Positions 3,662-57,187 of a DNA stretch of 64,000 nt are shown here, one piece after another. The stretch lies in the NCBI GenBank assembly GCA_034667725.1, contig JAXDQS010000010.1, forward strand, positions 217,937-281,936. Direction: 5' to 3'. The DNA comes from Thermoplasmata archaeon. GTDB taxonomy: Archaea > Thermoplasmatota > E2 > JACPAO01 > JAHFTW01. Numbering within the stretch: the stretch's first letter is position 1; each line of letters begins with the position of its first letter. Both the position numbers and the translations under genes were made by a program. A model generated the notes under the pieces. It made no database searches. It worked only from the letters and a program-made list of their open reading frames with translations, and was not told the DNA's origin.

Positions 3662-3748
3662 CAGGGACACGCCTGGTTGCCCCCGGCGCCCGCATTATCC
3701 CGCCCCCGCATTTCGTGGGCCGGGGCGTGGTGGGCGCCCGCAAGGACG

Positions 3749-19265: not shown

Positions 19266-21383
19266 ATGCGTCCAGCGATGCTGCTTCCAGCCTTGGCCCT
19301 GGTGGGCCTGGGGCTTCTCACGATGATCCCGCACGAGGCCCAGGCCCAGGCGGTCATCGACAACGGCTTCGTCCAGGTCGGCGTCCGCGCCGACGGCGCC
19401 CTCATCGCCTCCCCGGTCTCGACCGACGGCGACTGCACCGTCGTCGGCGGCGTCACGGTCTGCACCGGCGGCGCCGGCACGGGCCTGGTCGGCCTGCGCC
19501 ACATGGCCACCGGCTACGAGTCGACGGCCGACGGCTGCGCCTGCGAGACCTGGGGCGTGTCGTACGACGGCGCCGTGTCGGGCTACGCCCGCAGCGGCAG
19601 CGCCGGCCCCGGCTCCGGCCTCACGCCGGTGGCGTTCTCGAACACCGCCAGCACCGCCGTGGCCACCGTGCGCGCCGGCGACCTGCTGGTCACCCACGAC
19701 TTCCACCCGACGGCACTCACCAACGACCTGTACGAGGTCAACGTCACCATCGAGAACACCGGCCCCGCCCACGTCGACCTGCGCTACCGCCGCGCCATGG
19801 ACTGGGACATCCAGCCCACCGCCTTCAGCGAGTTCGTCACCATCGAGGCCAAGAGCCCGCTGCCGACCGCGCTGTCCTGCTCCAGCGACGACGGCTTCGC
19901 CACCGGCAACCCCCTCAGCGGCCTCGGCTCGATCCTGATGTACGGCCCCGGCTGCGGCTCCGACTTCATCGACTCCGGCCCGAGCGACCACGGCGCCGCC
20001 TTCGACTTCCACTTCGGCGTCATCGCGGCCAGCGAGAAGCGCGAGTTCCGCATCTACTACGGCGCCGCCTCCTCCGAGATCGACGCCTACGCCGCCATGG
20101 CCGCGGTGGGCGCCGGCGTCTGGACCTTCGGGCAGTGCAACCCGGGCAGCAACCCCGCCTGCGACACCAGCACGGGCGCGCCGGCCACCTTCATGTTCGG
20201 CTTCGACGACGTCGACATCATCCCGGTCAAGCCCGCCAACATCCCGCCCGTCGCCGCCGGCACCTACCTCGCCCGCACCGCCTGCGAGGACTCCCGCGTC
20301 TCGTTCGACGGGAGCAAGAGCACCGACCCCGACGGCTTCGTCCGCACCCACGCCTGGACCTTCGGCGACGGCGGCAACGCCACCGGCGAGAAGGTCGACC
20401 ACCTCTACAAGGCGCCGGGCCCCTACACCGTGACGCACACTGTGATGGACAACAACGGCGCCCTCACCACCCGCACCTTCACCATCGTGAGCGCCGGCGA
20501 CCCCGACTGCTGCCTCAACCTCAACCCGGTCCCGCCCATCGACGCGATGGAGTTCGACGCCGTCGGCTTCCTGCCCATCGTCTGGGACTTCGAGGACGGC
20601 CCCTACAGCTTCGACCTGTTCCCGCTGCCGACGGGCGCCACCTTCAACCCCGCCACCGGAGAGTTCGGCTGGCCCACCGCGGCCGGCGACGCTGGCGCCT
20701 ACACCCTCACCCTGCTGGCCACGGACGGCGGCGGCTGCACCGTCGGCACCGAGGTCGACATCGCCGTCCGCCCGTACCCGCCGCCGCTGCCGCCCGCCGA
20801 GGACCATGACCTCGACGGCATCGCCAACGCGCAGGACAACTGCCCCGACCGCGTCAACCGCGACCAGGGCGACGCCGACCGCGACGGCCTCGGCGACCTG
20901 TGCGACGACGACCCCGGCCTCACGGGCCCGGAGGCCGAGGCCGCGCGCCGGCTGCGCGCCGGCGGCGCGCGCGACCGCGACCGCGACGGGGTCGCCGACG
21001 TGGCCGACGTCTGCCCCGACGTGGCCGACCGCGACCAGAAGGACCTCGACGGCGACCGCCTCGGCGACCTGTGCGACCCGGACGCCGACGGCGACACGGT
21101 GCGCGACCAGCCCGCCGCCGGCATCCCGGCCGACAACTGCCTCCAACTGGCCAACGCGGACCAGGCCGACGCGGACGGCGACGGCGTCGGCGACGCCTGC
21201 GCCGCCGACCGCCTCGCCGCCGCCCAGGCGCGCAGCAGCGACGCCGAAGGCCGGCCCGCCGTCCTGGCCGCCGAGCAAGGCGGCCTCGGCTCGGGCGCCA
21301 AGGCGTTCATGCTGGCGTTCGCCGCCGCAGGCCTCCTGGGCCTGCTGGTGGTCTTGGCCATCCTGCGCCGCAACGAAGCGTAG
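19266..21383 (+). CDS. Surface protein with PKD domain, Ig-like domain, TSP3 calcium-binding repeats and C-terminal TM anchor
   Basis: Signal peptide; PKD motif (FDGSKSTDPDGFVRTHAWTFGDGGNATGEKVDHLYKAPGPYTVTHTV); Asp-rich DxDxDGxxDxxDNCP repeats; C-terminal AFMLAFAAAGLLGLLVVLAILRRNEA. Paralogous to 57188..59221 and 61203..63659. Confidence 0.6.
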   Translation: MRPAMLLPALALVGLGLLTMIPHEAQAQAVIDNGFVQVGVRADGALIASPVSTDGDCTVVGGVTVCTGGAGTGLVGLRHMATGYESTADGCACETWGVSYDGAVSGYARSGSAGPGSGLTPVAFSNTASTAVATVRAGDLLVTHDFHPTALTNDLYEVNVTIENTGPAHVDLRYRRAMDWDIQPTAFSEFVTIEAKSPLPTALSCSSDDGFATGNPLSGLGSILMYGPGCGSDFIDSGPSDHGAAFDFHFGVIAASEKREFRIYYGAASSEIDAYAAMAAVGAGVWTFGQCNPGSNPACDTSTGAPATFMFGFDDVDIIPVKPANIPPVAAGTYLARTACEDSRVSFDGSKSTDPDGFVRTHAWTFGDGGNATGEKVDHLYKAPGPYTVTHTVMDNNGALTTRTFTIVSAGDPDCCLNLNPVPPIDAMEFDAVGFLPIVWDFEDGPYSFDLFPLPTGATFNPATGEFGWPTAAGDAGAYTLTLLATDGGGCTVGTEVDIAVRPYPPPLPPAEDHDLDGIANAQDNCPDRVNRDQGDADRDGLGDLCDDDPGLTGPEAEAARRLRAGGARDRDRDGVADVADVCPDVADRDQKDLDGDRLGDLCDPDADGDTVRDQPAAGIPADNCLQLANADQADADGDGVGDACAADRLAAAQARSSDAEGRPAVLAAEQGGLGSGAKAFMLAFAAAGLLGLLVVLAILRRNEA

Positions 21384-21438: not shown

Positions 21439-22041
21439 TCAGAACAGGCTCGCGACCCCGGACACCATGCCGGAGAAGAACGCCTCGACCTGGCCCATGA
21501 AGCTCGCGTCGGCCTCGACGTCCGCCTGGGCGTCGACCGAGGCGTCCGCCTGCAGGCCCGCGTCGAGCTGGGCGTCGGCCGCGACGTCCGCGTCGACCGC
21601 CGCGTGGGCGTCCGCGGCCACGTTGGCGGCCGCGTCGAGCGCGCCGTCGACCGTGCCGTGGACCGTCGACTGGGCGGTCGCGGTGGCGGTGCCGGCCAGG
21701 CCGAGGCCCGTGCCGAGGGCACCGGTGGCGGTCGCCTGCGCGTCCGCCGTCACGTCGGCCGCGGCGTGGGCCGCGGCGTCGAGCTGGGCGTCGGCGTCGA
21801 CGCTGGCGTCGAGGGCCGCGTCGAGGTTGGCGTCGACGTTGGCGTCAAGGCTGGCGTCCGCATCCGCGGCGGCGTCCAGGCCAGCGTCCGCGGCGGCGTC
21901 GGCGGCAGCGTCCGCCGCGCCGGTCGCGCCGAGGCCGAGCATGGCCGTGCCCGGGATGGCCAGGGCCAGCAGGGCAGTCAGGGCAAGGGCAGCAAGGCCC
22001 GCCTTCTTCCAGGGTTTCTTGGGGGTGTGTTGGGGTTCCAT
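21439..22041 (-). CDS. Ala/Asp-rich low-complexity secreted protein
   Basis: Signal peptide after the internal Met (MEPQHTPKKPWKKAGLAALALTALLALAIPGTA), then ~150 aa of D-A-rich degenerate repeats; hydrophobic C-terminus. Confidence 0.4.
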   Translation of the reverse strand: MEPQHTPKKPWKKAGLAALALTALLALAIPGTAMLGLGATGAADAAADAAADAGLDAAADADASLDANVDANLDAALDASVDADAQLDAAAHAAADVTADAQATATGALGTGLGLAGTATATAQSTVHGTVDGALDAAANVAADAHAAVDADVAADAQLDAGLQADASVDAQADVEADASFMGQVEAFFSGMVSGVASLF

Positions 22042-22252
22042 CGGGGTCACCTTGTCTCCTGGTCCGACGGCGCGGCACATAAGGCGACGCGATACGCCGG
22101 GAAACTCCCAGCACCTCCTCAGGCAGGCTTATCTACGAACCATCCTGAGCCGGCCCCCGACGCCTGTGCCGGGTCCCCCCGGGTCGGTCGTTGAAAGATG
22201 AAGGAGGGCGGGGCGCCACCGCGGCCCAAACTCCCTATGGAGACAGACAACT

Positions 22253-31068: not shown

Positions 31069-33003
31069 ATGCGCCCCCTCCTCTTGGTGGCCACCGCCCT
31101 GCTGATGTTCGCGTTCGTGGCCAGCGCCCCGCACGCGGACGCCCAAGGCGCTTCCACACTTACCGTCACCATCTGCGCCCAGCCGACCTATTCCGAGTCC
31201 AAGGACACGGCCCTGTGCGAGGGCCGCGGCTTGGCGGGCGCCACCGTCCGCGTCACCCGCAACGGCCCGCTCGGCAACAACGTCGGCGCCGTCGACCGCA
31301 GCGCGACCACCGACGCCAACGGTGTCGCCGCCTTCGACGCCTTGGCGGACGGCACCTACAACCTCCAGGCGACCCGCGCCGGCTTCGCCGCGCGCACGGC
31401 CACCGTCGAGGTCGCGGGCGCCACCAAGGCGGCCTACACCCTCGCCGGCGTCCCGGTCGAGTTCCAAGGCATCGTCAAGGACGCCGCCGGCAAGCCGGTG
31501 GCCGAGGCCATCGTCACGGTGTGCTGCTCGCGCGACTCCTCGTACCAGCCGCCCGTCGCCACCGGCGAGGACGGCCTGTTCCGGGTCGCGACCACGGGCG
31601 GCTACCAGTCGGTCGGCGCCTACGACGCCCCAGGCTTCGTGCCTTACAACGCCGAGGTGCTGGTGGACGGCAGCCGCCAGGACATCACCCTGGAGCGGGT
31701 CCCCGCCCAGGACGCCGAACTCCACGGCGTCGTGCGCGACCAGGACGGCAAGCCCGTCGCCGGCCTGCGCATCGACGCCAACCCCTCGTGCTGCCACACC
31801 GAGCCGATGCCGGCCGACGAGCCGGGCGCGCCCGCGTCGTCGGTGCCCCCCAGCCCCGGCTACGCCTACTACGGCAACCACACCACGACCGCCAGCGACG
31901 GCTCCTACGCGATCCACGTCTACGGCGGCGCCACCGTCGGCCTGCGCGTCGGCTCCGAGGACTTCGCCCCGCTCTACAAGGACGTCCAGGTCGGCAAGGG
32001 CGCCTCCGTGCGCGCGGACCTCGACGTCAAGCGCTACCCGCCCCGCGACGCCCGCATCGAGGGCCGCGTCACCGACGGCGACGGCCACGGCATCGGCTCG
32101 GTCGCGATCACGGTCAACAACCCCGAGTTCGGCCGCACCGAGCAAGGCGGCCAATGGTGCGCCGCCGCCCCCGTGCCGATGATGGCAGAGGGCGACGCCA
32201 TCGCCAAGCCCGCCATCTGGGCCGGCCCGGAGTGCTCCCTCAGCGTGCAGGCCGACGGCAGCTTCTCCGGCCTCGTGACCCCCGGCTACAGCATCGTCAC
32301 CGTGTACTACGTCTGCATGGAGGGCGACTGCGCCGACGGCTACTACCCGTCCGTCCGCACCCTGGTGCTGCGCTCCGGCACCCAGCGCCTCGACGTCGCC
32401 CTCGTGCCCCGCCCCGGCCCCGACGCCACCCTGTCCGGCTACCTCGTGGACGCCGACCAGCGCGAAGGCATCGCCGGCCCCGACGCCCGCATCGACCTCT
32501 ACAACCTCGACAACGGCGCCTGGGGCAGCGCGGTCGCCGACGCGCAAGGCTCCTACAAGATCCGGCTCCGCAGCGGCCTCCACCAGGTCACCGCCTACGC
32601 CGACGGCCACCTCCACTGGGAAGGCATCGTCAGGGTCGAGCCCGGCGACAACGCGCTCGACATCCTCATGACGGCCGGCCAGGACACCGGCTACGGCGGC
32701 TGCTGCTACCTCGCGCAGGACAGCAAGGGCATGGCCACCACCGCCACCGCCTCCCCGGCCCCGATGACGCCGGGCGACGACGGCGGCAGCCGCGTCGCCG
32801 AGCAGGAGCTGCGCCAGAACCTCGCCGCCAACACGCCCGCCTTCGAGGACCTCAACGGCGGCCTCGGCCCGTACGACCCGGACGAGCGCCCCGCCCCGAA
32901 CAACGGCACCGGCACCCGCGCCAGCCCGGCGCTGGGCCTGCTGACGGTGCTGGGCGTCGCGGCCGCGATGGTCGTGGCGCGGCGCAAGGGCCGCGAATCC
33001 TAG
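31069..33003 (+). CDS. Surface protein with carboxypeptidase-regulatory-like beta-sandwich repeats and C-terminal TM anchor
   Basis: Signal peptide; repeated GxxGAxVxV...DxxGxxxF...DGTYxL modules; C-terminus SPALGLLTVLGVAAAMVVARRKGRES. The ORF-track start at 31042 would begin inside the TATA-like box. Confidence 0.55.
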   Translation: MRPLLLVATALLMFAFVASAPHADAQGASTLTVTICAQPTYSESKDTALCEGRGLAGATVRVTRNGPLGNNVGAVDRSATTDANGVAAFDALADGTYNLQATRAGFAARTATVEVAGATKAAYTLAGVPVEFQGIVKDAAGKPVAEAIVTVCCSRDSSYQPPVATGEDGLFRVATTGGYQSVGAYDAPGFVPYNAEVLVDGSRQDITLERVPAQDAELHGVVRDQDGKPVAGLRIDANPSCCHTEPMPADEPGAPASSVPPSPGYAYYGNHTTTASDGSYAIHVYGGATVGLRVGSEDFAPLYKDVQVGKGASVRADLDVKRYPPRDARIEGRVTDGDGHGIGSVAITVNNPEFGRTEQGGQWCAAAPVPMMAEGDAIAKPAIWAGPECSLSVQADGSFSGLVTPGYSIVTVYYVCMEGDCADGYYPSVRTLVLRSGTQRLDVALVPRPGPDATLSGYLVDADQREGIAGPDARIDLYNLDNGAWGSAVADAQGSYKIRLRSGLHQVTAYADGHLHWEGIVRVEPGDNALDILMTAGQDTGYGGCCYLAQDSKGMATTATASPAPMTPGDDGGSRVAEQELRQNLAANTPAFEDLNGGLGPYDPDERPAPNNGTGTRASPALGLLTVLGVAAAMVVARRKGRES

Positions 33004-33803
33004 CGAAGCGAGGACGCGGCCTTCGCCAGCTCCACGAGCCCCGCCGCCGTGCGCGTGCCGAACCAGGTGAGCGCCTCGCCGTCCACCACCCGCACCCGCC
33101 CGGGCGCGCCGCACGGCCCGAGGCCGGCGGTGTCGACCGGCTTGCGGTGGAACGGGAACGGCTCCGTGGGCAGCAGCGTCCACGCCGCCCCGGCGGCGCG
33201 GACCTCGGCGTCCGTGACCTCGAAGTAGCGCGGCCCCGCGTGGTCCCCGAAGACGTTGCGCAGGCCCGCCGCCGCCAGCATCGCGCTGGGGTAGCTGGTG
33301 CCGTCGAACGTCATCCACGGATGCCAGATCGGGCAGAACACCGGCACCGGCGACGCGGGCCGGGGCAGCGCCGCGACGGCAGCGTCGAAGCCGGCCCGCC
33401 AATGCTGGGCGGCCGCCTCGGCGCCGCCGCCGACCCGCCGCGCCAGGCGCAGCACGAAGGCCGCCGCGTCGTGCGGGGTCGCGATGTCGCTCCACAGCAC
33501 CTCGACGCCGTGGGCTTCCAGCGCGTCCACCAGCGCCTTGGGGTTCTCGTCCTTGTCGGCCACCACGAGCGTGGGCCGCAGCGCGAGGATCTTGTCGAGG
33601 CTGGCGTCCTTGGTGCCGCCCACGTGCGGGACCGTCTTGGCGGCCTCCGGCGCGATGCAGAACCGGGTGCGGCCGACGACCTGGCCGCCGGCGCCGAGGT
33701 CGAACAAGGTCTCGGTGTGGCTCGGCACCAGGCTCACGATGCGCTGCACGGACGGGGCAAGGCGTCGCGCGCTTGGGCCTTCCGTCGCGTCCTCCGACCA
33801 CAA
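33000..33803 (-). CDS. Periplasmic-binding-protein-like (BtuF/TroA-fold) ABC substrate-binding protein
   Basis: 267 aa, class III SBP-like pattern (IVSLVPSHTETLFDLGAGGQVVGRT..., LRPTLVVADKDEN). No obvious signal peptide. Confidence 0.55.
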   Translation of the reverse strand: MWSEDATEGPSARRLAPSVQRIVSLVPSHTETLFDLGAGGQVVGRTRFCIAPEAAKTVPHVGGTKDASLDKILALRPTLVVADKDENPKALVDALEAHGVEVLWSDIATPHDAAAFVLRLARRVGGGAEAAAQHWRAGFDAAVAALPRPASPVPVFCPIWHPWMTFDGTSYPSAMLAAAGLRNVFGDHAGPRYFEVTDAEVRAAGAAWTLLPTEPFPFHRKPVDTAGLGPCGAPGRVRVVDGEALTWFGTRTAAGLVELAKAASSLR

Positions 33804-33835: not shown

Positions 33836-35119
33836 ATGGAGGAGGCGGCGCCCACCGAGAGCCCCTTGCCGGGCGCCGGCGCCAAGGGCAAGCCGGTGCG
33901 CGTCCACCCCTACGCGCTCGAGCTGTCCACGGCCGCCGAGCTGCGCCGCGACCCGCGCATGGTCACCCTGTTCTGGGCCGGCCTGGGCACGGCGCTGGTG
34001 CTGCTGGGATTGGGGCTCGCCAACCGCTTCAGCCCCTGCCTGAACGGCGTCGGCCCCGAGCCCTGCGCCACCCCCGCGGCATGGACCAGCTGGGTCCAGC
34101 TTCCCCTGTTCGGCGGCCTTGCCCTGCTGGGCTTCGGCTTCGTGCAGCGCCAATGGGCCCGCCGCGTCACGCTTGCCGGCTGGCTGCTGTTCGGGTTCTA
34201 CTGGGCGCTCACCGCGCAGGACCTGTTCGTGGCCGAGGGCGGCGACATCGTCAACCTCTGCTTCGCCATCGTCGGCGTCTACTTCTTCGTCTACCTGGCC
34301 TACCACCAATGGCTCTCCGAGGCGCGCGGCATCGAGAACCTCACCGTCCGGTTCCTCAACATCGCCACCTTCGTCGCCGCCGGCTCCTACTTCGTCATCG
34401 ACAAGATCGAGCCGGTCCGCAAATGGCTCATCCTCACCGTCAGCCGCCACACCGAATGGATGCTGGGGCTGTTCGGGCAAGGCGCCGACGCCGGCCTCCG
34501 GGCCGTCTACAACCCCGCCGGCAGCACGAGCGACTTCCAGGCCGACCTGGCCCGCTTCTACTACGAGGGCCACCTCAACCACTGCCCCTCGCAGCCGAGC
34601 GACTGGTTCTCCAGCCTGATGCACTGGGACCCGTTCGCCCGCCAAGCCCTCGACGCCTGCCGCGACTTCTCGGCCCACGAGGCCGTCATCGTCCCCGTCT
34701 CGATCATCCTGGCCTGCACCGCCCTCCAGTCCATCATGCTGTTCGTCGGCCTGTTCATGGGCACCCCGGCCCCATGGAAGCGGCGCCTGCTGGCGTCGGC
34801 CATCGTCGCCGCCGTCGTGTACGTCCTCAACCTGCTGCGGAACACCGGCATCGTGTGGTTCTACGGCCAAGGCGAGGCCTCGTTCTGGATGATGCACGAC
34901 GCCGTCGGCAAGGGCGGCAGCCTGGTCGCCATGATCCTCATCGCGTTCGCCGCCTTCGCCTGGTTCCCCGAGTTCCTCAAGGCGCTCGTCGGCGTGCTGG
35001 ACCTGCCGCACCGCGACGGCCCCATCGAGCGCACGCTGCGCCTTGGCAGGCGGCGGCCCGACCAAGGCGCGCCGCCAGCGGAGCCGCCGGCCGAGACGCC
35101 GGCACCCCCCGTCCACTGA
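33836..35119 (+). CDS. Polytopic membrane protein, candidate exosortase/archaeosortase-family enzyme
   Basis: 427 aa, ~8 TM helices. Cys293 sits in a TM helix (SIILACTAL) and NLLRN lies 42 residues later, reminiscent of the archaeosortase catalytic Cys/Arg arrangement recalled from the literature. Family assignment is tentative. Confidence 0.4.
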   Translation: MEEAAPTESPLPGAGAKGKPVRVHPYALELSTAAELRRDPRMVTLFWAGLGTALVLLGLGLANRFSPCLNGVGPEPCATPAAWTSWVQLPLFGGLALLGFGFVQRQWARRVTLAGWLLFGFYWALTAQDLFVAEGGDIVNLCFAIVGVYFFVYLAYHQWLSEARGIENLTVRFLNIATFVAAGSYFVIDKIEPVRKWLILTVSRHTEWMLGLFGQGADAGLRAVYNPAGSTSDFQADLARFYYEGHLNHCPSQPSDWFSSLMHWDPFARQALDACRDFSAHEAVIVPVSIILACTALQSIMLFVGLFMGTPAPWKRRLLASAIVAAVVYVLNLLRNTGIVWFYGQGEASFWMMHDAVGKGGSLVAMILIAFAAFAWFPEFLKALVGVLDLPHRDGPIERTLRLGRRRPDQGAPPAEPPAETPAPPVH

Positions 35120-35177: not shown

Positions 35178-38100
35178 ATGGGCTGCAAACGGTCAAGAAG
35201 GCACGGCGGTCGCTGGGCCTTGACAATGGTCGTCCACCGCTTGTCCCCGCTCGCCGCTGCCTTCATCCTGGCAGTCTCCACCCTCGCCGCCGCGCCGGCG
35301 TCGGCCCTCATCGTCGGCCCCGTCGGCCCCATCGACCCCGACCTCATCAACGTAGACTGCGAGGACAGTGCCGCCGTTAGGGCCGCCTGCAACGCGGTGG
35401 CCACCCTCACGGAGGACCCTGGCGAGATCACCGTCGGGTGCGGCGACGGGTACGCCGGCAACGCCTGCCGCGAAGCCTTGGACACCCTCGAGGACCCGCC
35501 CGCGGCCTGCGAGGCCGTCACGTTCGCGATCTGCGAGGCGGTGGCCCGGCTGCTGGCCGACGACGGCGGCGACCCCGTCGGCCAGTGCCTGCACGACCTC
35601 GGCTTCGACACCGTCGTGATGCCCCAGCCCGGCACCAGCATCGTCAACCTGGACTGCTCGCAGCTTGGCGAGACCCTGGCGAGCCTCTACGTCATCCTGG
35701 ACAACCTGGCGGCGCGGGGCGGCGCCACCCTGAACTCCTGCCTGGCGCTGTTGGGCGACGGCATTGCCAACCTGGAGTCGAGCGGCCCGCCACTGGTGGA
35801 TTGCGAAGGCCTCGGCGAGACCGCCCGCGACACCGTCCAGGCCGCCATGGACCTGGTGGACCGCGAAGCCGACGACGCCATGCGCACCGTCGAGGCGTGC
35901 GTCTACGGCGCGCCCCCGCCGTCCGCCGGCGCCGCGCTGTGCCGCTCCCTCTACAACACGCTCGTCCTCTACCTCGCCTTCGCCGTCCAGACCGGCCTCC
36001 AGGCGGCCAACCACCAGCTTGAGTGCCAAGGCCTCGACACCGTCTCCATCACGGCGCCCGCCCCCGAGGGCGACCCGCCCGCCACCTTCGGCCTGCCGGA
36101 GGAGTGCGTGACCGCCCACCTGCTCTTGACCGCCGTCCAGGAGGCCGTCGCCAACGTGCTGCGCATCGCCGGCGACCTCGCGCCCTCCGTCTCGCTCTGT
36201 GTCGCCGAGGTCCCCGGCGGCCCCACCACCGTCACCCTCGACTGCCGCTACGTCGAGCGCGTCGTGCGCACCGTCGGCGACGCCGAGGCCACCGTCATGC
36301 TCGTCGTGCAGCAATACCTCGACGACTGCCAAGGCCGCGGCGCGCCCCCCGAGGGCCTGCCGAGCTGCCGCGAGCAGGTCGAGAACCTGCAGCGCATCGT
36401 GGACCGCAACTTCGCCGGCGCCTGGCGTGCCGCCCAGGAAGCCGCCGCCGACCTGCAGGCCTGCGCCGCGGCCGCCGCCGCGAGCACCTGCGCGGCCACG
36501 CAAGACTGCGCCCTGCTGCCCTGCGTCCTGCCCGGCGCCTGCGACACCGGCTGCGCCAGCAACGGCACCACCTCCTACCCGGCGCGCGCCAACGGCACCG
36601 CCACCGACGCCCGCATCGGCAACGTCTTCGAGTTCGTGGCCCCCGTCACGGGCGCCGCGGTCCCGGTCGACGTCCACGACTACGACGGGGACGGCATCCC
36701 CGACCTGCTGGACCCCGTCAACCTCCCCTCCGAGACCCTGCGCACGACCTCCGGCGCCGACAACCTGACGCTGCTGGACGGCCTCGGCGAGCAAGGCTTC
36801 GTCCTCTTGATCGAGCCCGGCCACCGGGAGGCCCAGCTCGTGGCCGCCGACCCGCTCGGCGTGGCCCTGTCGCTGCTGCCCGTCGAGGTGCTCGACGCCG
36901 CCACCACCCTCCAGCTTTTGGGCCAGACCCACGGCGGCCACGTCGCCGACCTGCTGGCCAGCGCCCTCAACGAGAACATGACGGTGAACGTCACCTGGGT
37001 CGTCCCGCAGCTGCCCACCGTCGTCCCCCTGCATTGGGCCGGCGGCGCCATCCCCGCCGACGGCAGCTGGCTCATGGCCCGCTCCGACCCGACCCGCCGC
37101 GTCACGTTGGCGCTCTCCGGCCTTGACGTCAAGCTGGAGGCCCCCAGCGCCAGCCACGCCAGCACCGACCCCGACCTGTCGTACCGCTGGGAGTTCCTCA
37201 ACCTCTGGGGCAAGAAGGGCTTCTGCTTCGACCCCACCACCTACACCGGCGGCACCGGCCAGTGCGAAGGCAAGGCCGAGCCCGGCTGGCTGCGCGCCTA
37301 CAGCGGCCGCGCCCACTACGCCCTCCAGGCCGTCGCCGAGAACCTGGAGCGCGGCCTGTCCGACCTGGCGGCGACCCCGGCGGGCACCAACGGCACCGCC
37401 CTGGAGCCCATCCTGGCGCCGACCGAGGGCCTGCGCGGCGACGAGGTCCCCGCCGACGCCATCGACCTGTTCGACCCCTCCTCGCTGGTGCACGCCATCG
37501 GCGACAACAGCACCTCGTTCCCGCCCGGCGTCGGCGTCGACTACCAGGTCCCGGCCCGCGAGCCGCGCTCCCTGCCGCGCCCCGCCATCCTGCAAGCCCC
37601 CGACGCCCTGCTCACGACCGACGTGGACCTGTCGGCCTACCGCCCGACGCGCACCTTCCGCTTCGACGCCCAGTTCTACGAGACCCCCGGCACGCCGCGC
37701 GACCTGCAGCTGCTGACGCTGCACATCACGCCGGCCGACGGCAACGACGCCGCCCAGACCTTCGTGCTCGACGGCCGCGCCTTCACGGAGTACCTGCGCC
37801 TGCTGCCCGGCGAGCAGCTCGCCCTCGATATCGACGCCGATCACTTGGACGGCTTCGTCCAGGTCTCCAAGGACGTCAACGCCGACGGCTGGGAGGACCT
37901 CGTCGTGCAGGTGCCCCACTTCAGCACCGTCACCATGGACGTCCACAGCGACAACTCGATCGCCTACCCCATGTGGACCATGGTCAAGATGACCAGCGCC
38001 ACCGAGGGCTGGCTCACCGGCCCTTACGGCGCCATGTACAAGTACAGCGCCGGCCGCGTCTACCGTCACGACATCCCCGGCCTCGCGGGCCAGATGCGCT

Positions 38101-41100
38101 CCATCGCGCTGCACGTCGTCGGCCCCAACGACGTCTGGGTGGCGGGCGACGGCGACTGCAACCTCGCCGACCCGTCGCCGTTCATCGCCCACTACTACTA
38201 CGGCAGCTGGAGCATCTTCCGCACGTCGCAGGTCGGCCCCGGCTGGGCCTGCGAGGGCTTCATCACCATCTGGATGGACCCCACCGGCTCCTTCGGCTAC
38301 GCGGGCGGCACCGACGGCATGTGGTTCAAGTACGCCAGCGGCGCGTGGAACCCCGCCCCCAGCCCCGCGCCCGGCGCCTGCGTCCGCGACATCGCCTTCG
38401 ACAGCAGCGGCCGCGGCTACGTCGGCGCCAACACCGACTTGTGCCTGGCCAGCGGCCGCCCCGCCATCAGTTACTGGGACGGCAGCTCGTGGAGCAGCCA
38501 CAGCACCTACGGCAGCACCGAGATCTGGAGCGTCATGGACGGCTCCGGCCAATGGGCCGCCGCCATTCCCAAGGACCCGGCCACCCACGGCATCCTGCAA
38601 CAGTCCGGCTCGTCCTGGTCCCTCGCCTCCGTCCCCGTTCCGGCGGGCCATTACTACGGCATGACGCGCGCGCCCGACAGCCGCCTCTGGTTCAGCGCCA
38701 CCGACCGCAGCAACCGCGGCTTCCTGGTCGAACGCGACCCGTCCGGCACCTGGACGACGCACTGGTTCCAGACCCGCATCGGCTTCCTGCGCGACGTCTC
38801 GATGTCGTCCAGCACGGCGGGCCTCGTCGTCGGCGACAAGAACATCCTGGCCATCCAGGTCTCGTCGGCCGCCGCCGCCTCCGCCGACTGGATCTGGGAC
38901 AGCCTGTCGCCGACCTCCGGCACCACCAGCACGACGTTCGCCGGCCGCGACTCCGGCACCCGCGACCCCGACAGCGGCAGCGGCACCGTCGCGCACACCT
39001 GGAACTGGGGCGACGGCTCGGCCAACGACCTGGCCGCCAACGCCGACCACGTCTACCAGGCGCCCGGCACCTACGCCGTCACCCACCAGGTGCGTGCCAG
39101 CAGCACCGGCCAGGCCAACGCGCACGGCTGGACCGTCACGGTGAACCCCCAGTCCACCAGCATCGGCCCCAGCACCTCGGACTCGCTGCCCGCCGGCACC
39201 CGCGTGGCCCCGAAGTACTACCAGTACACCAACGCGGCCAGCGACGGCCAGGCGCATGACTTCCGCGTCGTGCTCGGCGGCGCTGCCGGCGTCAAGATGA
39301 CGATCCGCAAGGGCACCGGCATGGGCGACTTCAGCGCCGGCGGCAACTGGCCCAACTACGGCGCCGCCGGCCGCGACCTGTCCGGCCCCATCGCCTACGG
39401 CCAGTCCATCACCATCCGGGTCGAGCAGGACACCAGCGTGAGCCCCTACGGCGGCTCCTACACCCTCACGGTGACGCAGCTGCCGCCCCCGCCCAACCCG
39501 GCCTTGAGCAGCCTGGTGCCGCAGCCGATGGAGGCGCTGACCCGCGGCTACGAGGAGCTGACGTTCCGCGTCACCTGGACCGACACGCAAGGCTACCAGC
39601 CCCGCGACGCCAGCGGCGCCACCAGCCCGCCCACCATCACGCTGGACACCAACGGCGACGGCGCCCTGGAGACCTACTCCATGCACCTGGACCGGCCGCT
39701 GTTCACCGGCTCCACCTACAAGGCGATCTACTCGTACTCGACCTACCTCAAGGAAGGCAGCGGCACCCAGCCGATCTACAAGGCTTGGGACACGCAGCCC
39801 TACCAGCAGGTCGCCACCGGCGCCTGGATCTACGCCCGCGCCACCGTCCTCAAGGCCTACGACTTCGAGGCCGACGCCGTCGACCGCCTCCCGGCAGGCT
39901 TCGCCAACGTCCCGCTGGCCGGCCACCCGGTGAGCTACTGGCACGTCACCGACACCGCCAAGGCGGGCACGCCCGACCGCGTCGCCTTCGGCGCGCACGG
40001 CAAGGCCCTCTGGTTCGGCCAGGAGTCCTCCGGGAACTACGTCGACGCCGACGGCCGCGCCCCGGGCGGCGCCCTCGAGACGCCGGTGCACGACCTGAAC
40101 CGCATGGACAAGCCGGTGCTGTCGTTCGCGTCGCTCTACGAGACCCAGGACGACGGCAGCAGCATCGACGTCAAGCAGGTCCACATCAAGGCCCGCGACC
40201 CCGGCGGCGTCTGGGGCGGCTGGGTGCTGCTGCAGGCCGTCCACGGCCCCGGCTTCCTGCCCGGCCGCTGGAACACCGTGGCCGCCAGCCTCGCCGACTA
40301 CGCCGGCAAGGAGGTCGTGCTGCGCTTCCAGTTCCAGGCCGACAACGCCAACAACGGCTACCTCGGCTGGTACGTCGACGACATCGTGCTCGGCAGCGAC
40401 GCCGACGGCGACCTGATCCCCGACCTGAAGGAGGCCAACCGCGTCATCGGGCTCCGCAACGGCGCCGTCGGCCCCGTCAACGTCGCCCCCGGCCAGACCG
40501 GCGCCAGCTACGTCAACCGCGTCAGCACCTCCGGCTTCCAGGGTGTCGTCGCCGAGGCCGTCCTCTACTCCGAGCGGCCGCAGGACCTGCGCGTCGAGCT
40601 GCTGGTGCCGCCGGCGGGCACGCTCCCCGGCGACTTCCCCGCGCTCACGACCGAATTCCGGCCGTTCAAGCTGAACCCGGCCGCGGCGCCCGCCACCGAC
40701 ACGGTGTGCGGCGTCACCAGCCCGGTGCGCAACTCCCTGTCGCCCTGGTACGCGACCTACCCGAACCTGCTCTTGGACCCCGCCACCGGCTTCGACAACC
40801 CCCGCATCGGCGGCGGCTTCGGCCCCGACTCGCGCCCGACCGTCGTGCCGATCCACGCCCTGGAGTTCAAGCGGGTCGACGGCGTCGGCCTTGCCATCAA
40901 GGCGGACCTCACCGAATGCCTCAAGGCCGCCGGCTTGAGCGAGTTCGGCGTCCACGACGTCGTGCTGCGCGTCCAGAACACCGCCGCCTCCGGCACCGCG
41001 ACCATCGAGTCGTTCGCGGTCACCGGCGTCGGCCGGTCGTCGATGTTCAGCGCCCGCAGCGCCGCCATCGGCATGGGCGACTACCGCGCCAGCGACGGCG

Positions 41101-42806
41101 GCTGGCTGGGCGGCGGCACGCCGCTGGGCCCCGACGCCGACTGGGACGGCATGGCGCGCGGCGAGGACGGCAACGACATGGTGCCGACCTACGTGCCGTT
41201 GGTCTTCGTCGACTACAACAAGCCCGAGGAGGGCCTGCAGTTCGCCCTCGACAGCAAGCGCGTCGTGCTGTCCGTCGACATCCTGGCCACCACCGGCACC
41301 ACCACGCGCGACGTCGCGACCCCGGTGGCCCAGGCCTACGGCGAGTGGCGCAACTACGTCCTGCCGGCCAGCCGGTTCGCCGGCGCCGACAGCCTGCGCA
41401 TCGTCGTCAGCCTGGCCGGCGGCTCGGTCATGACCATCGAGGCGGCCTTCAAGGACCGCCAGCCGCAGCTGGCCAGCCTCACCGAGTCCTTCCTGGCCGA
41501 CCCCGGCAACCCCTCGCCGGAGCCTGGCAGCCACTACCTGACCGACGCCGAGCGCAACCTCGGCTACATCATGGGCGGCGCCAAGGCCCTCTACTGGGTC
41601 TACAAGGCGGGCAAGCTCATCACGGGCGTCGGGGCCGCCGAGACCGCCCTCGAAGGGGCCACCCTGGTCGTCAAGACCGTCGGCAAGTGGGCCATCGTCA
41701 AGGTCGCCAAGGAGGGCCTCAAGTCGGCCTACGCCTCCAGTGGCGAGCTCACCATCTACGAGAAGACCTCGCGCCACAACATCTACAAGGGCCGGACCTC
41801 GCGCGGCGACTACCCCGAGGTCTACGACCTCTTGGACGAGGCCATCACCAACGCCCAAGGCCCGTACCCCACCATCGGCGGCAACAACGTCTGGTTCTAC
41901 GAGAAGGCGGTGGACCCGTCGACGGGCGCCATCGCCAAGCTCTACGTGCTGGAGACCCGCCAGGACGGCGACCTGTTCCGCGGCTGGGGCCACTCGCTTG
42001 CCAGCTGGGGCCAGATGGTGTCGCGGCCCTACACGGCCGGCGCGGACGCCAACACCGTCCACGCCACCGACGTCTCGGACATCCAGAGCATCGAGCGGCT
42101 GGCCAAGGTCGCCGGCCCGTACCCGAGCTTCGGGAGCTTCCTGTGCGCCGTCACTTGCTATGCCGAGGTGGACGGCGACCCCGGCCGCGTCCACCTGCAA
42201 GCCTACGGCGTCAACTGGGACAACCGCCACGACAGCAAGCTCGACGTCGACGCCGGCTGGGTCACGGCGGCGCGCTACGCCGCCTACCGCCCGAACTCGT
42301 GGGTGCCTTCCATCAACGAGGGCCAGCGCGACCTCCAGCTCGCGGGCTGGATCCGGTCGTACCGCTTCATCCACGACAACGGCGTCCACGCCTCGGCCTC
42401 GCAGGACGCGAAGGCCTTCTGGGGCGACGACTACGCCTCGAACCCAGGATGCGCTGCCGAGACCACGCGCCGCTGCCAGGCGCCGACCGCGACCTTCGAC
42501 GGCCACGGCGTCTTCGCCCAGGGCTTCACCCTGCGCTGGACGACCTCGTCGAGCCCCACGGTCCTCAAGACCGACAAGGCGGCCAGCTTCGGCCTCTACA
42601 CCAACTCCGACCGCGGGCCCTGGGATGGCCGCTCCGGCATCGAAAAGAGGCGCGACACCCTGGCGACGTCGCTCGGCACCCCGGGCTCCGGCCATGACGC
42701 GAACCTCATCCTGGCGCTCGACGCCAGCGGCGCCACCTGGGAGGACGACCACTACTACCCAGAGTACGGCCCGCACACCTTGGAGGAGTTCTACGACGTC
42801 CCGTAG
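35178..42806 (+). CDS. Giant secreted multidomain protein (~2540 aa)
   Basis: Single uninterrupted frame. Signal peptide, Cys-rich helical N-terminal ~450 aa, propeller-like W/Y/G-rich repeats, a PKD-like domain (TVAHTWNWGDGSANDLAANADHVYQAPGTYAVTHQV), a GWYVDDIVLG motif and a ~600-aa K/Y/I-rich C-terminal module. The antisense ORF is low-complexity. Confidence 0.7.
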   Translation: MGCKRSRRHGGRWALTMVVHRLSPLAAAFILAVSTLAAAPASALIVGPVGPIDPDLINVDCEDSAAVRAACNAVATLTEDPGEITVGCGDGYAGNACREALDTLEDPPAACEAVTFAICEAVARLLADDGGDPVGQCLHDLGFDTVVMPQPGTSIVNLDCSQLGETLASLYVILDNLAARGGATLNSCLALLGDGIANLESSGPPLVDCEGLGETARDTVQAAMDLVDREADDAMRTVEACVYGAPPPSAGAALCRSLYNTLVLYLAFAVQTGLQAANHQLECQGLDTVSITAPAPEGDPPATFGLPEECVTAHLLLTAVQEAVANVLRIAGDLAPSVSLCVAEVPGGPTTVTLDCRYVERVVRTVGDAEATVMLVVQQYLDDCQGRGAPPEGLPSCREQVENLQRIVDRNFAGAWRAAQEAAADLQACAAAAAASTCAATQDCALLPCVLPGACDTGCASNGTTSYPARANGTATDARIGNVFEFVAPVTGAAVPVDVHDYDGDGIPDLLDPVNLPSETLRTTSGADNLTLLDGLGEQGFVLLIEPGHREAQLVAADPLGVALSLLPVEVLDAATTLQLLGQTHGGHVADLLASALNENMTVNVTWVVPQLPTVVPLHWAGGAIPADGSWLMARSDPTRRVTLALSGLDVKLEAPSASHASTDPDLSYRWEFLNLWGKKGFCFDPTTYTGGTGQCEGKAEPGWLRAYSGRAHYALQAVAENLERGLSDLAATPAGTNGTALEPILAPTEGLRGDEVPADAIDLFDPSSLVHAIGDNSTSFPPGVGVDYQVPAREPRSLPRPAILQAPDALLTTDVDLSAYRPTRTFRFDAQFYETPGTPRDLQLLTLHITPADGNDAAQTFVLDGRAFTEYLRLLPGEQLALDIDADHLDGFVQVSKDVNADGWEDLVVQVPHFSTVTMDVHSDNSIAYPMWTMVKMTSATEGWLTGPYGAMYKYSAGRVYRHDIPGLAGQMRSIALHVVGPNDVWVAGDGDCNLADPSPFIAHYYYGSWSIFRTSQVGPGWACEGFITIWMDPTGSFGYAGGTDGMWFKYASGAWNPAPSPAPGACVRDIAFDSSGRGYVGANTDLCLASGRPAISYWDGSSWSSHSTYGSTEIWSVMDGSGQWAAAIPKDPATHGILQQSGSSWSLASVPVPAGHYYGMTRAPDSRLWFSATDRSNRGFLVERDPSGTWTTHWFQTRIGFLRDVSMSSSTAGLVVGDKNILAIQVSSAAAASADWIWDSLSPTSGTTSTTFAGRDSGTRDPDSGSGTVAHTWNWGDGSANDLAANADHVYQAPGTYAVTHQVRASSTGQANAHGWTVTVNPQSTSIGPSTSDSLPAGTRVAPKYYQYTNAASDGQAHDFRVVLGGAAGVKMTIRKGTGMGDFSAGGNWPNYGAAGRDLSGPIAYGQSITIRVEQDTSVSPYGGSYTLTVTQLPPPPNPALSSLVPQPMEALTRGYEELTFRVTWTDTQGYQPRDASGATSPPTITLDTNGDGALETYSMHLDRPLFTGSTYKAIYSYSTYLKEGSGTQPIYKAWDTQPYQQVATGAWIYARATVLKAYDFEADAVDRLPAGFANVPLAGHPVSYWHVTDTAKAGTPDRVAFGAHGKALWFGQESSGNYVDADGRAPGGALETPVHDLNRMDKPVLSFASLYETQDDGSSIDVKQVHIKARDPGGVWGGWVLLQAVHGPGFLPGRWNTVAASLADYAGKEVVLRFQFQADNANNGYLGWYVDDIVLGSDADGDLIPDLKEANRVIGLRNGAVGPVNVAPGQTGASYVNRVSTSGFQGVVAEAVLYSERPQDLRVELLVPPAGTLPGDFPALTTEFRPFKLNPAAAPATDTVCGVTSPVRNSLSPWYATYPNLLLDPATGFDNPRIGGGFGPDSRPTVVPIHALEFKRVDGVGLAIKADLTECLKAAGLSEFGVHDVVLRVQNTAASGTATIESFAVTGVGRSSMFSARSAAIGMGDYRASDGGWLGGGTPLGPDADWDGMARGEDGNDMVPTYVPLVFVDYNKPEEGLQFALDSKRVVLSVDILATTGTTTRDVATPVAQAYGEWRNYVLPASRFAGADSLRIVVSLAGGSVMTIEAAFKDRQPQLASLTESFLADPGNPSPEPGSHYLTDAERNLGYIMGGAKALYWVYKAGKLITGVGAAETALEGATLVVKTVGKWAIVKVAKEGLKSAYASSGELTIYEKTSRHNIYKGRTSRGDYPEVYDLLDEAITNAQGPYPTIGGNNVWFYEKAVDPSTGAIAKLYVLETRQDGDLFRGWGHSLASWGQMVSRPYTAGADANTVHATDVSDIQSIERLAKVAGPYPSFGSFLCAVTCYAEVDGDPGRVHLQAYGVNWDNRHDSKLDVDAGWVTAARYAAYRPNSWVPSINEGQRDLQLAGWIRSYRFIHDNGVHASASQDAKAFWGDDYASNPGCAAETTRRCQAPTATFDGHGVFAQGFTLRWTTSSSPTVLKTDKAASFGLYTNSDRGPWDGRSGIEKRRDTLATSLGTPGSGHDANLILALDASGATWEDDHYYPEYGPHTLEEFYDVP

Positions 42807-43938
42807 CCGCGCCCTCTTGGCCGTCGCGGCGGCGCTGCTGCTGGCCGGCTGCCTGGGGTCGGTGGACGACGGCAGCCAGGCCCCGCCGCCGGACGCCTGC
42901 GCGGACGGCGTGCCGCCGTGCGTCCGCAACGCCGACGCCGAGCTGCTGGAGGCCAAGTACGGCTTCCGGCAACTCAGCAACGGCACCGGCCGGCCGCTCC
43001 AGCCGTGGGTCACGAACGGCTTCGCCGGCTGGTCGGTGTTCTACTCGGACGCCTCCCCCCGCGTGGACCTCGCGGCGCGGACCCTGGCGGAAGATGACGA
43101 CGACGGCGCGGCCCGCGGGCTCACGCTGGCGGCCGGCGGCAAGGTCGCCTACACCTTGACGCCGCTGGCCAACGACGCGCTCGACCACGCCCACGCCCGC
43201 CTGCTGCTGCAGGACGCCGCCACCGGCGAGGCCACGCCCCTCGTGGAGGACCGCGGGCTGTATCCTCGCGCCTTCGGCCCGCCGTGGCTGCTGCTGCAAG
43301 AAGACAAGGGCGACGGCGCGCCGCGCGACCTCTGGGCCCTCCACGTCGAGACGCGGGCGCTGCAACTGGTCTCCGACCGCAGCGGCGAGGCCCACGGCGG
43401 CCCCGTCGTGACCGGCCACGCCGTCGCCGGCCACCACGCCGTCTGGGCCGAGGCCGAGCCCCAGCCGGACGGAAGCTTCGCCTACTCGGTGCGCACCCGC
43501 GACCTGGAGGCCCAAGCCGACGGCCCGACGTTCCGCGTCGCCGGCGGCGGCGAGGTCGACTGGATCGCCAGCACCGGCGCCGCCGCGGCCATCCTGGTCG
43601 GCCACGACGCGGGCGCCGACCTTTTGCTCTTCGACCCCGCCACCGGCCAGGCACGCCCGCTGGGCCCCGAGCCCGGCTGGAACGCGGTGCTCGCCGCCGC
43701 GGGCGGCGGCGCCGTCGTCGTGGCCGAGCGCCGCGGCGACGACGAGGCCCGGCTGCGCCTCATCCGCGCCGACGGCACGTCGGAGGCGCTGGCGGACCTG
43801 GAGGAGCTGGCGGTGGCGTCGATGGCCACCGACGGCCACGACCTCGTGCTGGTGGCCTACGCGTCGCCAAGCCGCGGCCTGCGCTACGAAGGCACCCAGG
43901 TCTACTGGAAGCCGCTCGACCTCGGCAATCGCGCTTAA
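42693..43938 (+). CDS. Putative lipoprotein (beta-rich), start uncertain
   Basis: Lipobox LLLAGC after a basic n-region (TSRSRALLAVAAALLLAGCLG). The only upstream in-frame ATG (42693) overlaps the giant gene's 3' end by 113 nt in another frame; a TTG at 42816 is the alternative. Confidence 0.45.
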
Positions 43939-43941
43939 GAG

Positions 43942-44598
43942 TTGCACCTCCGTCGCGCCGCCGTGGCGCGCTTTGCGCGGGGGTCCGCCCCCTGGCTGCT
44001 GGCCCCCGTGACCCTCGCGGTCGTGCTGGTGGCCTACGGTCTGCAGTCGAAGGACGTCTGGCCGTTCGTCGCCGCGGTCCTGCCGCTCTTGGTGTTCGCG
44101 TTCTTCATCGTGTTCTTCCGCGACCCCGACCGCCTGGCCTCGGAAGGCATCGCGAGCCCCGCCGACGGCACCGTGAGCTTCATCGACGAGGTGGACGACC
44201 CCGACCTCGGCCGGGTCGAGCGCTTCTCGATCTTCATGTCGCCTAAGGACGTCCACGTCAACCGCTACCCGGTGGACGGCACCGTCGTGTCGGTGCTGCA
44301 CAAGCCCGGCGGCCACGTGCCCGCCTTCAACAAGGAGGCCGAGCGCAACGAGCGGGTCGAGACCCTGCTGGCCACCGCCCACGGCCGCGTCAAGGTCATC
44401 CAGATCGCCGGCACCGTGGCCCGCCGCATCGTGCCCTACCACAAGGCCGGCGAGGCCGCCGTCAAGGGCGAGCGCTTCGGCCTCATCCGCCTCGGCTCGC
44501 GCTGCGACATCCTGGTCGCGCCCGGCACGGTGCGCTGGACCGTCCCGCCCGGCACCCAGGTCTACGCCGGCACCACCAGCCTGGGGGCGTTCAAGTGA
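43942..44598 (+). CDS. psd: Archaetidylserine (phosphatidylserine) decarboxylase proenzyme, short form
   Basis: 218 aa; N-terminal membrane helices, Psd-like core and a near-C-terminal GTTS motif consistent with the self-cleavage site of short PSDs. Confidence 0.65.
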   Translation: MHLRRAAVARFARGSAPWLLAPVTLAVVLVAYGLQSKDVWPFVAAVLPLLVFAFFIVFFRDPDRLASEGIASPADGTVSFIDEVDDPDLGRVERFSIFMSPKDVHVNRYPVDGTVVSVLHKPGGHVPAFNKEAERNERVETLLATAHGRVKVIQIAGTVARRIVPYHKAGEAAVKGERFGLIRLGSRCDILVAPGTVRWTVPPGTQVYAGTTSLGAFK

Positions 44599-45443
44599 CC
44601 CAGCCGCCGCCCGGCGCCCCTGGCGCCCCCGCCGCGGGCGACGGCGACACCTGGCGCGGCTACTTCCGCGCCGCCCTGCGCGACGAGTGGGACGGCCTCG
44701 ACCGCATCAACCGCGACCTCCGGCTGGCGGACCTGTTCACGCTCACCAACGCCCTCATGGGCCTCGCCGCGCTGCTGCTGATCGCCACCGCGCCCTACGA
44801 GGCCCGCTGGGACCGCATCCACCTCGCCATCGAGCTGGTCCTGGTCGGCGTCATCATGGACGGCGTCGACGGCGCCGTGTCCCGCATGGGCAAAGGCAAC
44901 GGCCCGCTCGGCGCCGTCCTCGACACGCTCGCCGACGCCTTGACCTTCGTCGCCACCAGCGCCGTCGTCACCTTCGTCTTCATCGACACCGCCCGCGGCG
45001 GCGAGACCGACCCGTTCCTCGACCGCTGGGGCAGCCTGCTCGCCCTCGGCTTCTACGTCGTGTGCGGCCTGCTGCGCCTGGCCCGCTTCGAGTCGCTCCG
45101 GGACACCGGCAAGCCCCGCGACTACTTCTCCGGCATCCCGACGCCCGCCGCCGCCCTCATGCTGCTGGCCATGGTGCTGGTCGAGTCGCCCGACTGGCTG
45201 CTGCTGTCGGCCGCGTTCGTGCTCGGCATCCTCATGACGACCCGCGCCCGCTACCCGAAGATCCGCGGCTGGATCGCCGTCGGCACCGTCGCCATCCTGC
45301 TCGCCATCCTCGTGAGCTTCAGCAACCCCGACTTCCAGGCGTGGCTCGCGCGCGGCCTCCTGGCCCTCATGGCGCTCTACGTCCTTGCCGGCCCCTTCGT
45401 CGTGCTCGCCCGCCACGGCGCCAACTTCCCGGGGTCCCGGTAG
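44595..45443 (+). CDS. pssA: CDP-alcohol phosphatidyltransferase (archaetidylserine synthase-like)
   Basis: DGxxAR...G...G...D...D signature in DGVDGAVSRMGKGNGPLGAVLDTLADALTF; multiple TM helices. Start overlaps the psd stop. Confidence 0.75.
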   Translation: MTQPPPGAPGAPAAGDGDTWRGYFRAALRDEWDGLDRINRDLRLADLFTLTNALMGLAALLLIATAPYEARWDRIHLAIELVLVGVIMDGVDGAVSRMGKGNGPLGAVLDTLADALTFVATSAVVTFVFIDTARGGETDPFLDRWGSLLALGFYVVCGLLRLARFESLRDTGKPRDYFSGIPTPAAALMLLAMVLVESPDWLLLSAAFVLGILMTTRARYPKIRGWIAVGTVAILLAILVSFSNPDFQAWLARGLLALMALYVLAGPFVVLARHGANFPGSR

Positions 45444-56897: not shown

Positions 56898-57154
56898 TCC
56901 AGTCGGCGGTGCGCGACGGGCCAGCGGCTCCAGGCGACCTGCACGGCCTTCGGTCCAACCCCCCTCGTGCCGCGCCACCGTCTCCGCGTACAGCTCCAGC
57001 TGCCGCAACAGCCGCCCGGCCGTGCCATGCGACAGGCCGCCCCGTTCGCGCCCCGCCCCCCCAACCTCGCGCGTGGCCCCAGCAACGGGAACCCCAAGCC
57101 CAAGGCCGAAAGTCGTAGCCGGCCCGCTGTCCGCCCAGGACGCCGCCTGCAATG

Positions 57155-57162
57155 CTTTATTT
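57155..57162 (+). promoter_or_regulatory. TATA-like box (within hairpin CCTGCAAtgctttatTTGCAGG), leaderless spacing to the ATG at 57188
   Basis: ctttattt centred ~30 nt upstream of the ATG that begins the signal peptide. Confidence 0.35.
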
Positions 57163-57187
57163 GCAGGACAGGGTGGTGACGCCCAGA

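Follow-up and report, generated by a model that had tools for sequence, protein, structure and literature searches.

The closest described counterpart of the system reported here is ArtA of Haloferax volcanii (HVO_0915; TIGR04125/TIGR04126; MEROPS C106), in which Cys173 and Arg214, 41 residues apart, are experimentally critical (PMC9263693) and Arg253 is a third critical residue. Across the family, nearly invariant Cys, Arg, and His residues located at the ends of helices are the proposed catalytic triad, and signals of the ArtA type carry their motif directly against a hydrophobic helix (Haft 2023 preprint). [quoted passage not shown] In the chemistry proposed in that work, the active-site Cys forms a thioacyl-enzyme that archaetidylethanolamine resolves through its amine (PMC7157517). 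The artA and pss genes are dispersed in haloarchaea. [quoted passage not shown] 2020, PMC7157517). Other archaeosortases (ArtB with VPXXXP-CTERM, ArtC with PEF-CTERM, ArtD with PIP-CTERM, ArtE to ArtH, and the heimdall- and pace-archaeosortases) share the superfamily and the Cys/Arg/His core, each subfamily having its own flavor of C-terminal signal.

The locus described here lies in a 64,000-nucleotide stretch of DNA from an uncultured Thermoplasmata archaeon, which we call the window; its G+C content is 72%. Positions 33836 to 35119 (+ strand) encode a 427-aa protein that, judged by its sequence, is a genuine archaeosortase A, long in form and a divergent member of the known system; we refer to the gene as artA. 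The protein is identical over its full length (100%) to database protein P0001, named “MAG: archaeosortase [Thermoplasmata archaeon]” by NCBI and “exosortase/archaeosortase family protein” by JGI. The archaeosortase annotation of the enzyme, the pathway, and the association of artA with pss genes were already known. What is added here is a long-form clade in Thermoplasmatota, the generality of the operon in that phylum, the decay of the PGF signal, a conserved cargo gene upstream, and the finding that a giant neighboring gene is an unrelated insertion.

In NCBIfam profile searches, the artA product matched the archaeosortase A model TIGR04125 at 123.5 bits (cutoff, 75; E = 1e-35) and TIGR04178, the exo/archaeosortase signature model spanning three conserved helices of the superfamily, at 59.5 bits (cutoff, 23; E = 3e-16). 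The other sortase subfamily models (ArtE, ArtF, ArtH, heimdall-, pace-, and Xrt*) stayed far below their cutoffs on this protein, the runner-up being ArtH at 34 bits against 200, with ArtE at 24 against 95, and TIGR04125 was the top NCBIfam family for 26 of 26 sampled homologs. The Pfam model Exosortase_EpsH (PF09721) reached 21.4 bits, slightly below its gathering score of 25.7; a match to the newer PF09721.16 is recorded, precomputed, for the identical database protein. The subthreshold Pfam score would fit a transporter or some other polytopic protein in which the Cys...NxxR pattern had arisen by coincidence. We give that idea practically no credence and consider it effectively refuted, as the ArtA and signature models are well over their cutoffs and the putative catalytic residues are invariant in homologs. 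Nor is there a competing transporter assignment, because, even with a model of pLDDT 90.6 in hand, a profile search of PDB sequences returned 0 matches and Foldseek of the AF2 model against the PDB found no fold match (best E = 0.38). An earlier note on this DNA had called the protein a possible sortase-like enzyme, and these results bear the call out: the NCBIfam models are significant, Cys and Arg are conserved in every aligned homolog, and neither a transporter family nor any other solved fold lays claim to the protein.

Hydropathy gives seven strong hydrophobic segments, and the AF2 model (pTM 0.87) is a helical bundle with about nine long helices; taken together, they predict 7 to 9 membrane helices, in agreement with the earlier description of a 427-aa polytopic protein. 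In the model, Cys294, within SIILACTAL, is at the start of helix 294-308, and N332-L-L-R335-N336 is near the end of helix 314-344. Cys294 and Arg335 are 41 residues apart; the earlier note had seen both motifs correctly, and its spacing of 42 was an immaterial off-by-one. C294, N332, R335, N336, and H354 are invariant in alignments of 26 and of 99 homologous sequences, and C294, R335, and H354 are each found at a predicted helix terminus or close to one. Given the family-model matches and the invariance in the 99-sequence alignment, the Cys/NxxR pattern is not a product of chance, and Cys294, Arg335, and His354 are the putative catalytic residues. The enzyme thus shares with H. volcanii ArtA the HMM family, the 41-residue Cys-Arg spacing, and a conserved His. 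For the counterpart of Arg253, offset mapping through halo-like homologs gives two candidates, a VF(R/K)xxPE site, which has R/K in many clade members and Ala375 in the window protein, and the conserved R393/R399. If the positive-inside rule is applied, basic segments 1-39, 103-110, 309-317, and 391-408 would be cytoplasmic, and C294, R335, H354, and the insertion described below would face the extracytoplasmic side.

Compared with H. volcanii ArtA, the window enzyme is about 120 aa longer, with an extra N-terminal segment, predicted to be cytoplasmic, plus a transmembrane (TM) helix and an insertion of 60 to 80 aa before the Cys. It belongs to a clade, from high-GC Thermoplasmatota, of about 90 long-form homologs, 400 to 570 aa in length and 40 to 68% identical, all from Thermoplasmatota MAGs; canonical-length ArtAs (305 to 340 aa) align to it at 30 to 38% identity. 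The N-terminal extension of the clade, about aa 1 to 80, has a basic R-x-HPYA (RPHPYAxE) motif and an extra TM helix at aa 40 to 65, followed by a short Cys-containing loop. The 60- to 80-aa extra loop, at about aa 213 to 290 of the window protein, directly precedes the catalytic-Cys helix; it is built of two short strands and two short helices and contains Cys250 and Cys275. A FYPDxYC...C segment that is common in the clade is lacking in the window protein and in those most closely related to it, and the loop of the window protein has a 12-aa low-confidence addition of its own (alignment and AF2 model).

Downstream of artA are the two partner genes. At 43942 to 44598 (+ strand) is a pssD-like archaetidylserine decarboxylase gene (NCBIfam decarboxylase models, E down to 2.6e-59), whose product is proposed to supply the ethanolamine-lipid acceptor, and at 44595 to 45443 (+ strand) is a pssA-like archaetidylserine synthase gene, assigned by TIGR04217 (E = 1.9e-32) and synteny; the two genes share 4 nt where pssD stops and pssA starts. 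On the haloarchaeal “protein sorting system” equivalog models, both products fall below cutoff: PssD scores 151 bits against 240 on NF038088 (“protein sorting system archaetidylserine decarboxylase”) and PssA 88.8 against 200 on NF038086 (“protein sorting system archaetidylserine synthase”). When 185,579 species genomes were scanned, 468 artA relatives emerged, of which the best 80 loci, all from Thermoplasmatota, were analyzed with flanks of 10 kb or less, the neighbors being mapped by tblastn. Among these best 80 of 468, 74 carry pssD downstream of artA in the same orientation, 68 of them at a distance of 400 bp or less, and pssA is usually the next gene after it. The genes are clustered as in Methanosarcina and unlike those of haloarchaea, but the order is artA-pssD-pssA rather than artA-pssA-pssD. 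The earlier note had overlooked the neighbors that tell the most, both this downstream pair and the conserved tail-bearing cargo upstream.

In the window, the cluster is interrupted: artA and pssD are 8.8 kb apart, the largest distance among the best 80 of 468 loci. The intervening DNA encodes a giant secreted protein of about 2530 to 2540 aa (from 35178 or 35223 to 42806, + strand) and, between it and pssD, a 375-aa lipobox ORF, a small lipoprotein (42817 to 43938). The giant protein has a Cys-rich N-terminal region and PKD and MAM-like domains (Pfam) and ends in ...EEFYDVP. Hydropathy detects no TM segment in it besides the N-terminal signal peptide, so it is not a tail-bearing cargo protein. 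By tblastn, neither it nor the lipobox ORF has a homolog in the best 80 of the 468 related loci, and the two genes are a window-specific 8.8-kb insertion within the artA-pssD-pssA operon. We considered the giant protein as ArtA cargo and rejected it: it lacks a C-terminal anchor, has no homolog in the 80 loci, and is inserted at an otherwise tight artA-pssD junction; judged in this way, it does not belong to the sorting system. The notion that the artA-pssD gap is a hot spot for insertion of surface proteins was also rejected, since smaller gaps in four related loci (L007, L013, L020, and L023) hold nothing comparable. What had been noted before about this neighbor, its adjacency to artA, its length of about 2540 aa, and its secretion, holds; a functional link is not supported, as the adjacency is a lineage-specific insertion.

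On the other side of artA, across a 32-bp spacer and divergent from it, is a gene for a TroA-like “helical backbone metal receptor” (33000 to 33803, − strand; NF038402, 113.7 bits), which adjoins artA in 18 long-form loci. Its product has neither a signal peptide nor a tail and was rejected as an exported PGF-anchored binding protein. Beyond this gene, and separated by it from artA, is the conserved upstream cargo gene, cargoU (31069 to 33003, + strand), which encodes a protein with a signal peptide and six CarboxypepD_reg/transthyretin-like repeats (PF13620, 116.8 bits over 6 stretches). Of the 18 long-form loci with enough upstream DNA, 13 have cargoU upstream of artA; its orthologs, 620 to 730 aa long, share its repeat organization and conserve a FEDLxGGLGPYD motif. 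CargoU may be the chief envelope or S-layer protein and, possibly, the principal conserved substrate of the enzyme.

CargoU is one of five proteins in the window with an N-terminal signal peptide and, at the C terminus, a hydrophobic stretch followed by an Arg/Lys cluster; its tail reads ...TRASP-ALGLLTVLGVAAAMVVA-RRKGRES. A secreted candidate ArtA substrate at 17794 to 19233 (+ strand), which matches no Pfam or NCBIfam family, ends in ...EAEAAP-LGAPLAVLAVLAAGGL-RRGGRGCKGF, and the secreted protein at 19266 to 21383 (+ strand) ends in ...GSGAKAFMLAFAAAGLLGLLVVLAIL-RRNEA; the latter, with no Pro before the helix, is the weakest candidate. The remaining two candidate substrates are a secreted PKD/He_PIG/thrombospondin type 3 (TSP3) repeat protein at about 57152 to 59221 (+ strand), with the tail ...ARAGP-SVWPWVAAAALGALAAAALVAVV-RRRA, and a secreted IgGFc_binding/PKD/TSP3 protein at 61203 to 63659 (+ strand), with the tail ...GGGAP-WAVAAVGLGAAAPLLAWAVV-RRKFAAKP. 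In four of the five, [A/S/G]-Pro directly abuts the helix. Those that can be annotated are surface-type repeat proteins (CarboxypepD_reg, PKD, He_PIG, TSP3, and IgGFc-binding), and secreted repeat proteins with PKD, TSP3, or Ig-like domains are the usual class of archaeosortase cargo. A C-terminal helix with basic residues is also typical of an ordinary type I membrane anchor, and it is on orthology and context that we regard the window tails as candidate substrates.

PGF is absent from all five window tails. The PGF-CTERM models TIGR04126 and PF18204 gave no match to them even at E ≤ 10, and none of the PGF-, PEF-, MYXO-, GVDTG-, Heimdall-, and Loki-CTERM or other signal models searched, including those of the other archaeosortase subfamilies, was over its cutoff; subthreshold matches were nonspecific and driven by the helix and RRR. 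The earlier count of five surface proteins with a similar tail was right, as was the statement, taken literally, that the tail is not PGF-CTERM. The orthologs of CargoU put this in perspective. We aligned 26 orthologous tails (a word-indexed search for more orthologs gave 14 proteins), and in these the signal always abuts the helix, and the tail ends in RRR. Pro occupies the first position, against the helix region, in 25 of 26 orthologs, and Gly the second in 13 of 26; the third varies among L, V, A, P, and others, with Phe in a single ortholog (P0120, APGFG, ending in ...KEAPGFGPVLAAILIGALVAIRRRR). The nearest relatives have PGLE and PHLE, resembling the PGFE tails found beside two canonical-length Thermoplasmatota ArtAs (L047 and L049).

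Across the long-form clade, PGF occurs in 1 of about 41 tails collected, and the signal consensus is [S/A]-P-[G/x]-x-[G/x]; the window tails (SPALG, APLGA, GPSVW, and APWAV) are more degenerate than the SPGLG of their relatives. Among tails from relatives, the highest TIGR04126 score is 19.2 bits (cutoff, 24.5). The PGF-CTERM model is itself narrow, because even the two true PGFE tails of L047 and L049 are missed by it. Compared with PGF-CTERM substrates, the window motif has lost the Phe and is barely conserved past the Pro, and we read the window tails, from these alignments, as probable homologs of PGF-CTERM that have become strongly relaxed and Phe-less. The pattern looks like drift of a known signal rather than a crisply defined new motif. 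The suggestion in the earlier note of an undescribed sorting signal thus stands insofar as no model recognizes the tails but falls short insofar as the tails of orthologs grade into PGL, PGV, and PGA and, in one ortholog, into true PGF.

We consider it very likely that a bona fide ArtA, with PssA and PssD, cleaves and lipid-anchors Sec-exported proteins carrying Phe-less PGF-CTERM-like tails in this organism. ArtA would be a membrane-embedded cysteine endopeptidase or transpeptidase, with Cys294, Arg335, and His354 at the outer ends of three helices. Its exported surface substrates would carry a tripartite signal, a short Pro motif set against a hydrophobic helix and then an Arg/Lys cluster, and the helix would first hold the Sec-exported protein in the membrane. 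We imagine that ArtA then cuts at or near the Pro motif, probably via a thioacyl-enzyme intermediate, and that an ethanolamine-type archaeal lipid, produced by the synthase PssA and the decarboxylase PssD of the same operon, receives the new C terminus; the end product would be a lipid-anchored surface protein. The lipid-anchoring chemistry is taken over from the work in H. volcanii, in which the substrates are likewise tripartite, the cargo consists of secreted repeat or envelope proteins, and PssA and PssD are the partners.

The specificity of the enzyme allows other readings. The long-form proteins might constitute a distinct archaeosortase subfamily that is not functionally ArtA, paired with a Phe-less “SP-x-x-CTERM” signal and deriving its specificity from the insertion before the Cys; this would make a new enzyme and signal pair, comparable to ArtB/VPXXXP or ArtC/PEF. 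PGF is found in just one of the roughly 41 long-form tails, and the few canonical-length tails include PGF or PSF (L047 and L049), a contrast that draws on a very small canonical-clade sample. The 60- to 80-aa insertion and the N-terminal extension are both absent from canonical ArtAs, and the existing C-terminal signal models all score below cutoff. Permuting PGF reportedly blocks processing in H. volcanii, to go by the title of a 2015 report by Abdul Halim. Still, the enzyme scores above the ArtA cutoff, its gene remains in the ArtA-specific pssD/pssA operon, the tails of one orthologous protein grade from PGF to PGL, PGV, and PGA and on to PAL, as drift or relaxation would have them do, and the insertion is itself variable, with FYPDxYC...C lost from the window protein and the homologs nearest to it. 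A separate subfamily seems to us rather unlikely. An altered specificity can nevertheless be entertained, because the models miss the tails and PGF reportedly matters in H. volcanii; a real change or relaxation of specificity in the long-form enzyme, tied to its extra loop, is a tentative idea, and any role of the loop would be part of that idea.

It is also conceivable that the five tails are uncleaved TM anchors and that ArtA acts on one or a few substrates, such as CargoU, or on none of those encoded in the window. Little unites the window tails apart from a small residue plus Pro, a helix, and RR; the 19266 to 21383 tail does not have even the Pro, and no sorting-signal model exceeds its cutoff on any of them. 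We regard this as improbable, given that [A/S/G]-Pro sits directly at the helix in four of the five, as in ArtA-type signals, that the CargoU tail is conserved and its gene syntenic with artA across divergent genomes, and that all five are signal-peptide-bearing, surface-type repeat proteins of the usual cargo class. One can envision a bolder reading, in which high-GC Thermoplasmatota harbor a distinct long-form ArtA lineage with an extracytoplasmic module beside the active-site Cys and a relaxed rule, [S/A]-P-x-x followed by helix and RRR, and in which CargoU is the principal, S-layer-like, lipid-anchored substrate. This reading is speculative, and we offer it as something that may well turn out otherwise.

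In our view, these findings are useful to the specialist for annotation rather than surprising; they open no new mechanism, and their value lies in envelope annotation of uncultured archaea and in defining what ArtA recognizes. The loci indicate that predicted ArtA-type C-terminal lipid anchoring, with PssA and PssD as lipid-supply partners encoded in the same operon, is the norm among uncultured Thermoplasmatota, and the PGF signature can erode until hardly anything but a single proline is left, with the result that annotation by TIGR04126 or PF18204 misses cargo in the lineage of the window. If the relaxed rule for the long-form enzymes is true, they would represent a new archaeosortase and signal flavor missed by HMMs, and ArtA cargo would be systematically under-annotated.

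The junction between artA, the archaeosortase A gene (33836-35119, plus strand), and pssD, the archaetidylserine decarboxylase gene, carries an insertion made up of a giant gene and a lipoprotein gene. The giant gene (35223-42806, plus strand) encodes a secreted protein with a Cys-rich N-terminal part, holding 24 Cys within the first ~445 residues, and a central region in which PKD and MAM-like matches are accompanied by Trp/Ser/Gly-rich repeats. Its C-terminal ~600 aa belong to no family that we could match and contain no membrane anchor.

The second inserted gene is a lipobox ORF (42790-43938, plus strand; ~375 aa) with an N-terminal lipobox-type signal ("...SRSRALLAVAAALLLAGC"). The giant gene ends with a TAG stop at 42804-42806, and with respect to this stop the ORF is in frame +1. 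The only canonical start available to it is the TTG at 42817, which would give "MAVAAALLLAGC", lacking the basic n-region. The basic "RSR" of the signal coincides with the last codons of the giant gene, and upstream of it there is no ATG, GTG, or TTG. Either the signal is unusually short, or a non-canonical start is used, or translation is coupled to that of the giant gene. Homologues of this ORF are absent from the 80 related loci (the best 80 of 468 relatives, all Thermoplasmatota).

On the other side of artA, and divergent from it across a spacer of 32 bp, lies a gene for a TroA-like "helical backbone metal receptor" (33000-33803, minus strand), which lacks a signal peptide. The pairing with artA is kept in 18 loci of the long-form clade; a functional tie to sorting is not evident.

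Elsewhere in the window, two apparently secreted proteins, at 2-2008 and 3662-4954 (both plus strand), have Cys-rich ends ("...CIVRQEPICVTVGGRNPICVTNA" and "...EERPACNTA", respectively) in place of a tail made up of a hydrophobic helix and RR, and these may represent a different C-terminal feature. "CDPTPIQ(G/N)C" units are repeated in the former. In a small secreted protein (21439-22128, minus strand), the C-terminal half is long and repetitive, rich in Ala and Asp, and highly acidic ("...DAHAAVDADVAADAQLDAGLQADASVDAQADVEADA...").

One MAG yields two different long-form artA copies, L010 (JBFKXH010000050.1) and L022 (JBFKXH010000218.1), which are 54% and 50% identical, respectively, to the ArtA of the window; this indicates either paralogues or a mixed bin. 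At the second-closest relative, L001 (JAZJZE010000009.1), pssD, the archaetidylserine synthase gene pssA, and the next gene lie inverted at 1-2800, ~7 kb upstream of artA rather than downstream; at another related locus, L002, pssD is absent from the 10 kb downstream of artA. Among the window's nearest relatives, the operon has thus undergone more than one rearrangement.
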